A stretch of DNA of 64,000 bases from Eledone cirrhosa (lineage: Eukaryota), in assembly GCA_964016885.1 (NCBI GenBank), contig OZ024747.1, positions 84,134,001 through 84,198,000 of the forward strand, written 5' to 3'. Of the stretch, positions 1,476-25,681 are shown in pieces. Every line of letters starts with the position of its first letter. Within the stretch, counting starts at the first letter, position 1. Position numbers and translations under genes: made by a program. A model generated the notes under the pieces. It did not search any database and was not told the DNA's origin. It saw only the letters and a program-made list of their open reading frames with translations.

Positions 1476-1910
1476 TGAAAAGTGTAATTTTCTACACAAA
1501 ACGAAGGTTATAGAGAAAATTGAGGTTGGTAATGGCACATGGAATATATAAGAGCCAGAATACTTTTTTGTGAAAAAACATAATTTTATAAGGTAAGGAA
1601 ATAATAGAGGGTATAAAAAATGACCGGTTTCGATGGGTCTGCAAAAGCCATCTTTTCAAATGTTGATTAATATTAAGAAAAATTAATAATACGAAGAGTT
1701 AAAATTTGAGATTTGAAAATTCAAGTATAAAGTTCATTGTGGGATTTCATAGCAGTTTTCATCTAGGTAGCAACAACAGGTTGACTGCTGTGTCCCTTTC
1801 TGGTAGTGAATGAGAAGTTATTTGGGGTGTGGGTTATTTTATAAAGGTCAGATTTAGCAATCACCAACTGGCCAGCTGCTGGTCAGTGAGGGGGTGGAAG
1901 CAATATACAT
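1476..1910 (-). mobile_element. PLE-type 3' terminal region with hammerhead
   Basis: Ends in (TA)n at 1475; carries a hammerhead at 1617-1664; same strand as and downstream of the PLE RT fragment. Confidence 0.5.
1617..1664 (-). ncRNA. minimal hammerhead ribozyme, U3-A8 variant
   Basis: Minus strand: TTGAAAA-GATGG-loop-CCATC-GAAA-CCGG-TC; palindromic stem III ACCGGT; GUC site; stem I weak. Confidence 0.6.
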
Positions 1911-2690
1911 ACACATATCTTCCTGTGGTGGGTAGGAAAGTGGAGCGTGATAGAAAGGGATTTAGTGCACTTACACCTATATATACACACACATACCTTC
2001 ATCCACACATACATACATATACATATACATATATATATATATATATATATATATATATACATATACACACATACATACACACACACATACATATACATAC
2101 ACACATACACACACACACACACACATATATACACATACACACACACACATATATATATATATATATATATATATATATATATATATATATATATATACAC
2201 ACACACACACACATATATATATACATACACATACATCCAGATACACACATACATACACACACACACACACACATATATATATATATATACACATACGCAT
2301 ACATCCAGATACACACATACATACACACACGCACACACAATACATACATCCACATGCACACACATACACACACACACACATATACACATACATACACCCA
2401 CACACAGAGAAATGGCCTCCAAATATATATATATATATATATATACATACAGACACATATATTTTTTCCATAATATAAGAAGTTGGGACAGTGAAATTAA
2501 AATACAAGTCATTCTGATCACATTGAGTTCTTCATGTAGATTGGGCCCCGCAACCGACAGTGGTGAATTCTGTGTGCGCATATATATATAGATATATGTG
2601 TGTGCACGTGCAGGGTTTAACATGGATGTGTTGGTCACACAAAGGCATGGTCTGTCAACGAATAAACCTGATTATAGCAGGCCCTACATG

Positions 2691-4158
2691 TTTCACATGT
2701 AGGGCCTGCTATAATTGGCCTGAGTTTTAGGTCTTCTGGTGGTGTTAGTTCAATGTAATTGTTGGTTGAGGTGTCACATGCATCGTTTATGGGTTTACAT
2801 TTGTGGAGTTTCGGTAAGCCGTAAAAAGAGCTTGTATTGCATTTGAAGTGGCTTATATAGTTAAACTCTTTTGTGGTTAAGCTGTTGCGGTATTTATTCA
2901 GTAAGGTCAAAAGGTTCCCCATTGTTTTGGTGTGTTTGTAGTTTTCTGTTTTTTCATAGTATGTGTTGTTTTCTAAAATGTTAAGTGCGAGGGTCCTATA
3001 GTAGTCCGTATTCATAATGACAACAGTACTGCCTTTATCGGCTTCTTTGATAGTTATCTCAGGGTTGTTTCTAAGTGTGAATAATTCTTCCCATTCGTGT
3101 GTAGATAGGTTTGATTTCGTGTGTTTATTTGTAATTTTTTCATAGGGAAAGTTGGTGATGTGTTCGCAGTACGTGTCCAGTGCTTTATTTCTTCCCTTTT
3201 GTGGGCAGAAATTGCTTTTATTTCTAACCAGTGATTCGTCTTCAGTGTTGGTGTCGTTGTGGAAGAATTCCGTTAGTCGCAGCTTTCGGCAGTATTCCAT
3301 GATGTCATCCTTCATTTCGGAGAAGTTTGGTTTACGTGGTGTAGGTGTAAATTTCAGGCCCTTACTTAAAATGTTGATTTGTGTGTTGGTTAGAGGTGTC
3401 TTTGAGAGGTTGATTATTTTTGGTTTCTCCTGAGGGGGGGGGGGGGGGGGGGGGCCATCGAGTATCCTGGTATTTCAGGCTTTTCCCTAAAAAAGGAATG
3501 TAGTTTTGTGTGTGATTATATTTTGTTGGTCTGTTGCGTGTGGGTCTGTAGCTTGTTGTTTCATGAGGGTGAATGTGATGGTGGGGGTGGTATGTGTTGT
3601 GGTTGTTGATGAGCAAGGGTTCTGTTGTTGGTTCATGTGGTCTGGGTGCGTTATTTCTGTGGTACAGAGTGTTGAGGTTGGAGGGTTGTCTTTTGTTGGA
3701 TTGAGGGTGATGTCTGGTGTGGTTGTGGGTAAGTTCTGTTGTGATTTCAAGTGGTCTGGGTGGATTTCTTCTGAGGAATGTGGTGTGTGTGTTGTGAGTT
3801 GGATCTATGTTATTTCGTCGTTGGTTTATGTAGGGGGCATTTCTACGGAAACCTGTGTTGTGGTGGTTGGGTGTGTTTCTTTTGGTGTAGTTGGCCGTAT
3901 TTGGTTTGTGTTGGTGGGGAATGTGCCTGTGGTTAGTGTGTGTTGGGTTTGGTGGTGTAAATGTGTCTGTTGTAGTTCTTGTTATGTTCAAATGCTTTAT
4001 AAAGGGGTTACCTGTTTGGTGCGTCCTTTTAAAGTCTTCTTCATATTTGAGGAACCAGTTTTCGGATTTTTCCCACCGTTTAAGGGAAATAGTTTCTGCA
4101 TTCTCGCAGTCCTGTTTCCACGATTTGATTAAATTTTGTAGGGTTGTTCCCTCGGCCT
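2691..4158 (-). mobile_element. Penelope-like retroelement ORF fragment (N-terminal region plus start of RT), frame-broken and truncated
   Basis: RT frame 2691-3435 reads IINLSKTPLT..LSKGLKFTPTP, IKEADKGSTVVIMN (DKG motif), FYGLPKLHK, LRPIIAG; the upstream frame 3455-4158 is offset at a G21 run (3434-3454); (TA)n at the 5' side. Confidence 0.85.
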
Positions 4159-4261
4159 TATATATATATATATATATATACATATTTGTATATATATATA
4201 TGTATATATATTATATGTATATATATATATATATACATATATGTATACATATGTATCATGA

Positions 4262-5471
4262 TCTATAAAAGGCAGATTGTTGTGTGTGTGTGTGTGTGTG
4301 TTATACATTTGCACAATTTCAAACCGATTCGATTCAAAGTCTGTAAGAATGTTGTAAATGGTCTAACTTAGGTCAACGACTATTTATTTCATTCAAACTC
4401 ACCCACAATTACGGAAATAACCGATAAAACTAAATACATGACGCTTTAACCCTCTAATACAATCTGATTACCTCTCTCTACTCCCCTTAAAATTCGATAA
4501 AACTACATACATGCTGCAACTTTCTCTTATATACGCTTAAACTTACAAACTTCCTTTAGGAACGCCGAAGAAAGAAGAGAGAAAGAAGAGAGTGAGAGTG
4601 AGAGAAAGAGAGAGAGAGAGAGAGAGAGAGAGAGAGAGAGAGAGAGAGAGAGAGAGAGAGAGAGAGAGAGAGAGAGAGAGAGAGAGAGAGAGAACGTTTG
4701 TTTTTGAGTGTGGAACGGTCAAACATTTATTTACTTCAATGACAAAGCGAACTTATTACATTTCATACGAAACAACAATTATTCAAAAGCAACAGATAAA
4801 TTTATTCAACAACAAAAAAAATAGCGATAAATCTTTTTTAAAACATCTCTCAACGAACGCGGAAGAAAGAAGTATCAGTTCATTTACTATACACAATAAT
4901 ATCCTCTATGAGGTCACTAAACCTGCTAGAAACACCAGCTATCTCTCCCCCATATCACACCCCTCCCTACTGTCTCAAATTTAGAAAACATATCCTCTAT
5001 GAGGTCACTAAACCTGCTAGAAACAGCAGCTAACTCTCCCCCCATATCACACCCCTCCCTACTGTCTTAAATTTAGAAAACATATCCTCTATCAGGTCAC
5101 TAAACCTGCTAGAAACAGCAACTAACTCTCCCCCATATCACACCCCTCCCTACTGTCTTAAATTTAGAAAACACACATTAGACAACCATGCAGAACAACT
5201 CCATCGCAGCTCTGTTGTTCGGCTGGCATCGTCTACGGGCGTGTTGCGCAAGTACTGTGAAACAATAAATTTCAACACTTCTTTGCACAGAGATAATATC
5301 CATAGGCGAAACTACAATTGTCACTGCTGGCGTAGCTCCTGCTTCGGCAGTCCAGGTCTGCAATTCATTCACCCAGTGCCTGGCAGACCAAAAAGTGCTG
5401 CCATAAAATGGGTGGTGCAACCTAACTTTGGTAACTTACTGACCCTGAGCAACGCCGGGCTTTAATGCTAG
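4262..5471 (+). mobile_element. non-autonomous Helitron
   Basis: A|TC 5' end (4261/4262); imperfect subterminal hairpin CCCTGAGCAACGCCGGG (5443-5459); CTAG|T 3' end (5468-5471); homologous inverted segments at 34460-34500 and 36460-36570. Confidence 0.7.
4899..5173 (+). repeat. about 91-bp minisatellite x3 inside the Helitron
   Basis: ATCCTCTAT..CACTAAACCTGCTAGAAAC.. recurs at 4901, 4992 and 5084. Confidence 0.9.
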
Positions 5472-24175: not shown

Positions 24176-24333
24176 GCGGTCGGGGTCCTAACTCTTTTCG
24201 TGTATATATATATATATATGAAAAGAGTTAGGGCCCCGACCGCTGAGCTCCGGCCGTTTCGACAGCTAAACCCTAAGTATCGAGTACTCTGGTGCGTTAT
24301 GGTCCACCTGGTATCTTACCACACTTTCTTTGT
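24176..24333 (+). mobile_element. rearranged family B element
   Basis: 24-bp arms 24176-24199 / 24220-24243 around a TA tract, then an inverted stem III segment, then the family 3' end. Confidence 0.75.
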
Positions 24334-24932
24334 TATATATATATATATATATACAGAGAATTAGTATATCTACCAACATATGCGTACAGATGTACACTAA
24401 TGCTAGCAAATACATAAGTTATGTCATAGTACCTAGGTGGTTCAATGCAGGAGGATGCAGAACAATAATATGAAAGACGTAAAATAAGAAAATTTTTTTA
24501 AAAAACTTAAAAATTAACTTACTTACTAAAATTTTCACTCCAACTAATTAGTTTCTGTAATGGGATAATGATAGTTACGTAATATAACCATCGAGAATTC
24601 ATTACGTCATCAGGGAGTCTATTCTCAGCTAAGTCTCCAGGCAATGCGCGGACACTGGGGACTCATATAAAAATAATAATAATTCGGTGGAAGGAACAGC
24701 TAGCGGGGACTGGATTACATGCACTGAAAAAGTTCGCTGCCTCTGGTCAAATGGCAGATTCTAAAGAATCAATCACGTGACACTGAGGCTAGTCGGAAGG
24801 AGTGGGTTGGTAAGATGACAGAAGCCTACTACCACACCAATGAATTAGTAGCGGATTTGGCAGGTTTGCTCAACAAATAAATAATTTGGAGATAAATACA
24901 GAGAATTAGTATATCTACCAACATATATATAT

Positions 24933-25113
24933 AGAAAAAGAGATGAAATCGAAAATGCAACTGGAGTCTTATTTTTTTTTTTTAAATATATATATTTTTT
25001 TTTTTAAATAAGACTCCAGTTGCATTTTCGATTTCATCTCTTTTTCTTTATACTTTCACTCGTGTAGGACACCTCGGTTATTTTTCATTTTGTAAAAAAA
25101 ACCTCACTTTCTA
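24933..25113 (+). mobile_element. fold-back element in (TA)n
   Basis: 42-bp arms 24933-24974 / 25006-25047. Confidence 0.8.
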
Positions 25114-25591
25114 ATATATATATGTATATATATATATATATATATATATATATAAGCAAAAGGGATATTCAATTTGTTAGTAATTCAACAAATATAAATA
25201 TTTATAACTGATTCAGAGCACTCGACAAGTTTTCTGGAGTATAATATTCAATGATATTAAATGAAAACTATATTTATAAAACCATATTTATTCTATTATA
25301 TATATTTCAATTGTATATATATATATATATATATATCCCTCTGGTCGAGTAATCTTTGAAGTGTGGTGACTGCTGGAAAGCTGCCATTACTCATACTTCT
25401 CTCCTCCTTCACCACCTCTTCTACGGCTTCGATATAAATACCCCCTCCGCCTCCGTGGTATTTTCTTCGGGGTTATAAGAGGCTTAGCTCTGTTTCTCGA
25501 CTGTTATATCGCGTGACTATCTCCCCCTCCGCCTTTTGGGATTCTTTCTCACGTCGTGTAGACGCGTTCTTGAGGCTAGTAAAATGAGGTA

Positions 25592-25681
25592 TCCTCTTGA
25601 TAAGTCGGCAGACCTCGCAAGGACTCTATATCTTTATGATGTATTGTTTTTGTTTATGCCACGAAACTACGTAGTCGAGGA
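25592..25681 (+). ncRNA. type-I hammerhead ribozyme, U3-A8 variant, loopless palindromic stem III
   Basis: TCCTC-TTGATAA-GT(C)GGCA..TGCCAC-GAAA-CTACGTAG-TC-GAGGA; within a (TA)n-flanked segment 25337-25752. Confidence 0.75.

Follow-up and report, generated by a model that had tools for sequence, protein, structure and literature searches.

U3-A8 as the family state of hammerhead motifs in abundant repeats of the octopus Eledone cirrhosa

Here, a stretch of 64,000 nucleotides (nt) from Eledone cirrhosa (GenBank assembly GCA_964016885.1, contig OZ024747.1, positions 84,134,001 to 84,198,000 of the forward strand; hereafter the window) was analyzed for hammerhead ribozyme motifs in which the C3-G8 pair of the core is replaced by U3-A8, so that UUGANAA stands in place of CUGANGA. 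The four motifs are type I hammerhead motifs located at the 3' ends of abundant repeats, namely of three related families of Penelope-like elements (PLEs; F1, F2 and F3) and of one non-coding tandem unit (F4), with U3-A8 as the family state and with tandem transcripts of the parent elements probably being cut pairwise. The covariation of positions 3 and 8 is real and not a product of decay; in this genome, counted motifs with U3-A8 outnumber those with C3-G8. The U3-A8 swap itself is already published; here, tens of thousands of copies of a known variant are found.

The motifs of the window

A previous sequence-only reading of the window had located four motifs with a UUGANAA core. The letters as well as a descriptor search, with matches far above those in shuffled sequence, place such motifs at all four loci, one of which has two arms:

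1617..1664, minus strand: F1 hammerhead motif (locus 1), type I, U3-A8; U3 at 1659, H17 at 1622; weak A-U stem I; CCGG palindrome
13967..13997, minus strand: F2 hammerhead motif, left arm of locus 2, U3-A8 and C13; U3 at 13997, H17 at 13967; CCGG palindrome intact
14123..14153, plus strand: F2 hammerhead motif, right arm of locus 2, U3-A8; U3 at 14123, H17 at 14153, C13 at 14145
17572..17601, minus strand: F3 hammerhead motif (locus 3), U3-A8; U3 at 17601, H17 at 17572; palindrome CTGG (commonest F3 form CCGG)
25597..25676, plus strand: F4 hammerhead motif (locus 4), U3-A8; stem I of 5 bp, bulged stem II with a long loop, palindromic stem III strand of 10 nt

The descriptor matches display three stems around the core with the open end at stem I, which is the type I architecture. 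Within the core, U4 G5 A6, A9, G12 A13 A14, the A15.1-U16.1 pair and H17 are present in F1, F3 and F4. At locus 1, for example, the core TTGAAAA and stem II (GATGG/CCATC) are followed by GAAA CCGG TC. At locus 2, GCAA is found in both arms, which are identical at 181 of 186 positions. The right arm was missed by the descriptor because a C-to-G change at 14148, present in just 2 of 52 aligned copies, disrupts the palindrome and its 15.2-16.2 pair. The Rfam hammerhead models gave no match at the four loci up to E 10, a result of little weight as it comes with no C3-G8 positive control; on the whole window, only microsatellite-driven matches of microRNA type were obtained among the 150 of 329 matches listed.

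Covariation of positions 3 and 8

The descriptor used describes a type I hammerhead with any base at positions 3 and 8 and with either GAAA or GCAA permitted. In the window, 6 matches were obtained, 4 of them with U3-A8 (loci 1, 3 and 4 and the left arm of locus 2), while its 100 local dinucleotide shuffles yielded 2 matches in total and none with U3-A8. The two further matches are the following:

444..496, plus strand: hammerhead motif with the canonical C3-G8 pair, from a different repeat family that is related to L274 (descriptor match)
31394-31421, plus strand: A3-G8 minimal motif with a (TA)n run in place of position 3 and stem I; probably derived from a C3-G8 copy by truncation

A second, partial match to the family of the 444-496 motif lies at about 9950 on the minus strand.

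A blind sample of 119 evenly spaced 10-kb stretches (1.19 Mb) contained 13 U3-A8 and 10 C3-G8 motifs and no other state, plus 8 U3-A8 motifs with GCAA. The reversed sequence gave 0 matches and 12 shuffles gave 3 in total (mean 0.25 vs 23 observed). With a looser version of the descriptor, 15 C3-G8, 10 U3-A8, 2 A-A and 1 G-G motifs were found.

Throughout the 3.0-Gb genome, a core pattern with a pyrimidine at position 3 and a purine at position 8 was counted together with a reversed-pattern control. In this pattern, A9 must be followed directly by a G, the stem II region must be short and GAAAC must be present; it thereby misses F2, F4 and several C3-G8 families. It yielded 37,944 matches in all (reversed control 3,506), 23,857 with U3-A8 (2,973) and, by subtraction, 13,538 with C3-G8 (192). 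The single mutants U3-G8 (257; control 210) and C3-A8 (292; control 131) are far rarer than U3-A8 and make up 549 of the 37,944 matches. Thus, when positions 3 and 8 are left free and shuffled sequence is searched alongside, both comparisons agree with the covariation that had been proposed from the sequence. Also the suggestion of an abundant class missed by CUGANGA-based searches was confirmed by the genome-wide and blind-sample counts: such searches would overlook over half of the counted motifs of this genome (21 U3-A8 vs 10 C3-G8 in the blind sample).

On the level of families, a set of 283 sequences (1.87 Mb) in which the four families are enriched gave 289 matches; these were grouped into 20 clusters, which are not all independent. 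Of these, 11 are U3-A8, 8 are C3-G8 and 1 is an A-G singleton, and none is U3-G8 or C3-A8. Since lists of the closest copies of each locus are biased towards the query, the family states were instead counted from patterns with any base (N) at positions 3 and 8. F2 has T3 in 100 and A8 in 99 of the 100 matches listed (10,609 in total), and F4 has T-A in 99 of the 100 listed (6,011 in total). For F1, TTGAAAA is found in 41 of 41 copies within the family loci. A candidate U3-G8 intermediate family was rejected as decay: its enriched subtype carries A8 in 86, G8 in 8, C8 in 3 and T8 in 3 of 100 matches listed (counted by eye), with T-A at 15 of 20 loci.

The motifs might also be accidental matches in AT-rich sequence or C3-G8 hammerheads that have decayed; this explanation draws on the base composition of the window (about 36% GC, rich in microsatellites) and on the sizeable reversed control of the U3-A8 pattern (2,973). 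It is refuted by the shuffle and reversal controls together with the U3-A8 family states seen with N at positions 3 and 8; furthermore, an older family decays away from U3-A8 (T-A at 15 of 20 loci, 5 single changes).

Natural U3-A8 hammerheads have been on record since 2011, when several rare examples were described (Perreault et al., 2011, PMC3088659). These share the 3-8 Watson-Crick covariation, but here it occurs in tens of thousands of repeat copies. In Schistosoma mansoni, the Cercyon PLEs carry about 1,300 U3-A8 motifs vs about 2,000 canonical ones, and a U3-A8 descriptor was already used (Cervera and De la Pena, 2014, PMC4209133). The variant is therefore not new. The minimal Cercyon hammerheads resemble those of E. 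cirrhosa in being abundant type I motifs of PLE terminal repeats with UUGAAAA or UUGAUAA heptamers (S. mansoni 3 and 4 of the supplement) and in occurring as single or opposite-strand copies. In contrast to Cercyon, U3-A8 outnumbers C3-G8 among the motifs counted here, A9 is not followed by an additional base, loop III is a palindrome of 4-8 nt where Cercyon has none (PMC4209133), and the variant is distributed over two distant PLE clades as well as non-coding tandems, with one family adding C13.

Penelope-like elements and tandem units as carriers

The repeat copies that carry the four motifs are:

1470..4159, minus strand: internally deleted F1 PLE copy (blastn against the full-length element L240)
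13836..14283, both strands: inverted pair of 5'-truncated F2 PLE ends with the junction at 14098, each arm running into (TA)n
17509..17634, minus strand: F3 PLE 3' stub of 126 nt with microsatellites on both sides
25316..25756, plus strand: partial copy of the non-coding, retrozyme-like tandem unit F4 (591-595 nt; family homology)

The F1 copy consists of the 5' part of the open reading frame (ORF; 2690-4159), the 3' region (1969-2676) and the terminal repeat with the hammerhead (about 1470-1860), and it ends in (TA)n. Its full-length relative L240 displays two same-strand hammerheads 4.95 kb apart around the reverse transcriptase (RT) and GIY-YIG endonuclease (EN) frames, and in L242 an inverted motif pair surrounds the ORF; such inverted pairs are frequent among the copies. 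Terminal-repeat hammerheads thus flank an ORF and occur with tandem and inverted 5'-truncated copies, as is characteristic of EN+ PLEs. At 11 loci of F1, 5 of F2 and 4 of F3 (some overlapping), the motif is preceded on the same strand by a GIY-YIG frame of its own family, which ends 0.9-1.5 kb upstream, while in 2 further rows F1-F3 motifs are paired with unrelated endonucleases. In Pfam, GIY-YIG is above the cutoff in F1 and F2, and RVT_1 was found in F2 at E 6e-6, below the cutoff. The PLE hammerheads of Drosophila, rotifers, shrimp and mosquitoes are alike in their short stem I, in a palindromic stem III predicted to require dimers and in their position behind an RT-GIY-YIG gene; in the available text of PMC4209133, however, U3-A8 is not reported for them.

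The proteins of F1, F2 and F3 are 56-58% identical (F3 56% to both F1 and F2), and together with the older family F5 they form one clade (100/99) in a protein tree of 22 short rows without reference PLE proteins. The terminal repeats of F2 and F3 are 71% identical over 126 nt. Because F1-F3 form one PLE clade, loci 1-3 share one U3-A8 ancestor, and the window holds at most two U3-A8 lineages. The four loci can therefore no longer be called unrelated, nor did the same double change happen there four times, as the sequence-only reading had assumed.

A further U3-A8 family, F6, is located elsewhere in the genome; at 3 of 3 loci checked, its motif follows the endonuclease of a distant clade at a distance of 300-350 nt. 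A 100/100 split separates this clade from F1-F3, whose side of the split also includes C3-G8 families. If the motifs travel with the genes and C3-G8 is ancestral, U3-A8 would have arisen at least twice. A single origin, followed by spread through descent or exchange of terminal repeats, would mean that the families are not separate evidence for covariation. The common clade of F1, F2, F3 and F5 fits such an origin, and F4 as well as several other U3-A8 clusters lack an ORF that would allow their placement. Against it stand the position of F6 and of the C3-G8 families in the tree as well as stems I-III of F4 and F6, which do not resemble those of F1-F3. The C3-G8 family found on the F6 side owes its placement to a positional link at a single locus. 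We regard a single origin as quite unlikely.

The cysteine linker between RT and EN is present in F1 and F2; such a linker has been given for Neptune and Nematis PLEs (PMC8557442), while our tree contains no reference proteins of named PLE clades. In several PLE endonuclease families (L124, L226, L151, L242, L211 and L214), neither descriptor detected a hammerhead in the 2-2.6 kb that follow. Relaxing the search for 27 endonuclease frames without a linked motif gave nothing convincing, and reading 8 such tails by eye revealed one C3-G8 motif and one motif with A4 and U6. In F2, the same break between the N-terminal frame and the RT is seen in 3 of 3 copies (L241:6085, L242:3527 and L247:2934). 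It lies at an in-frame T TTT TTA heptamer, and the -1 frame continues into the RT, so a programmed -1 frameshift is possible. The T run is kept in F1 and F3, yet in the F1 copy L240 the frame stays open across it. Near loci 3 and 4, the window also has F2-like repeat pieces (16924-17386 and 25130-25309) in which no motif is recognizable.

F4 differs from the PLE families in that its 593-nt unit has a longest stop-free frame of 78 codons. Its motifs occur in tandem at a spacing of 590-595 nt, up to six in a row, and each non-coding unit contains one type I hammerhead, as in retrozymes. In 50 motif chains (some loci overlap), no coding partner was found: homology never extends more than 592 nt upstream and no coding sequence is shared beyond. 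A proposed tie to a PLE gene was rejected, as the linked ORF has its own C3-G8 motif; the tree row F4_U3A8_L198 is thus a C3-G8 family. In relatives of F4, the palindrome is altered yet still self-complementary (CTACGTAG, CTGTACAG). In unit organization, F4 is similar to the animal retrozymes without long terminal repeats, but its unit of 591-595 nt exceeds the about 170-400 nt given for these, and it has the U3-A8 core (PMC7229834; bioRxiv 10.64898/2026.07.22.740005). Unlike animal retrozymes, many F4 copies are dispersed, truncated or inverted and resemble PLE ends. Two further retrozyme-like arrays were observed, one with six 316-nt units and a U3-A8 motif (G000:C1:6519946-6521556, L277) and one with about 30 units of 466 nt and a C3-G8 motif (G000:C1:5738326-5752334).

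Predicted cleavage, off-consensus cores and other features of the window

On the model of the PLE hammerheads of PMC4209133, two motifs carried by the same tandem transcript would pair through the palindromic strands of stem III, the paired motifs would cleave after H17, and unit-length RNA would be released. Self-cleavage of this kind is predicted for the motifs described here. The unit-length RNA would then be reverse-transcribed into microsatellites, and selection on the 3-8 pair in the active parents would have removed single mismatches. The copies of the window itself (truncated, inverted or deleted) are probably inert. Contigs assembled from runs of two other organisms, with 0 to 2 nearly identical pieces of low depth in each run, did not enter the analysis. 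The calculated energy of the stem III self-duplex is -8.3 kcal/mol for F1 and for the left arm of F2, -3.2 for the F3 copy of the window and -12.9 for F4, and stem I of F4 is strong (-6.4 kcal/mol). Ribozymes with covaried positions 3 and 8 are said to be active in vitro (PMC3088659), and the minimal PLE hammerhead of Schistosoma displays a low, dimer-dependent cleavage (PMC4209133).

Several points weigh against such a catalytic role. The calculated energies of stem I in F1-F3 (+2.9, +2.4 and 0.0 kcal/mol over 6 nt) point to a weak helix, and in folding none of 4 short monomers surpasses its shuffles (z -1.05 to +0.32), locus 4 alone reaching -2.04. In a full double-mutant scan of a type III hammerhead, the 3-8 pair was rescued by the G-C swap only, with low activity of the other mutants (PMC9901934). 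PLE hammerheads cleave poorly in vitro, and the available text does not state that the dimer cleavage test used a U3-A8 motif (PMC4209133). The rarity of single mismatches among young copies mainly reflects age and not selection; only the family-level count bears on selection, and the families are related. Finally, amplification is no proof of catalysis, because families with C13 (10,609 matches) or with A4 and U6 (2,589) are large as well.

These large off-consensus families, the weak stem I and the exclusive G-C rescue would suit U3-A8 motifs that are no longer catalytic. Such motifs would persist in the terminal repeat for a structural or protein-binding role, or else as passengers, and the elements would move without self-cleavage. 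Also Naiad PLEs proliferate without canonical hammerheads (PMC8557442). On the other side, the core, GAAA, the palindrome and UH stayed constant across F1, F3 and F5 while stem II and the flanks turned over, and this constancy holds over proteins with identities down to 50-58% (F3 vs F1 and F5). Moreover, no U3-G8 or C3-A8 family exists among the 20 clusters. The non-catalytic explanation is an unlikely alternative, and pairwise cleavage in the parent elements remains the favored reading.

Position A13 is nearly invariant in the hammerhead core. F2 deviates from this, as C13 (GCAA) is present in 98 of the 100 matches listed and in 68 of 68 copies of the examined loci. The GCAA of locus 2, which had been taken for a mutation, is thus a family state, and F2 represents a homologue of hammerheads whose core departs from the consensus. 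Its sister family F3 has A13. Within F2, C13 is shared by the two subfamilies, whose identities are 83-85% for the terminal repeat and 96-97% for the gene. When these are compared for continued constraint on the motif (14 and 7 copies), 2 of 31 columns differ within it and 27 of 171 in the flanks (p 0.26), 9 of the 27 being one indel. Judged from these sequences, F2 most likely spread with a catalytically dead or very slow motif. It appears very doubtful that the U3-A8-C13 motif still cleaves as a dimer, with the 3-8 swap freeing position 13 so that the GCAA box works. If so, about 10,000 F2 copies, plus the A4/U6 family, would represent working hammerhead cores outside the accepted consensus.

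The A4/U6 family is hammerhead-like and linked to PLEs. Its core reads CAGTTGA (A4 and U6 on our parse), its stem II is GGAT/ATCC and its palindrome is TATA; among its 2,589 matches 98 of the 100 listed are identical (examples L245:913, minus strand, and L158:3184). Literature searches gave no report of these families under A13C, C3U/G8A or octopus Penelope hammerheads; the literature on PLE variants may already cover C13 and A4/U6. Whether PLEs depend on the ribozyme for their spread has been termed unclear (PMC8557442), and the sisters F2 (C13) and F3 (A13) represent a natural pair for addressing this question.

Apart from the hammerhead repeats, the window contains an apparently intact long interspersed nuclear element (LINE) at 41832-45419 and 45287-47395, both on the minus strand. 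A frame of 1,195 codons with Exo_endo_phos, RVT_1 and zf-RVT (Pfam) lies behind a frame of 702 codons without a Pfam match. The element may be Tx1-like, and broken relatives are located at about 48900-50200. At 31606-31691, a near-perfect 86-nt GC-rich inverted repeat opens a repeat that also matches L243.

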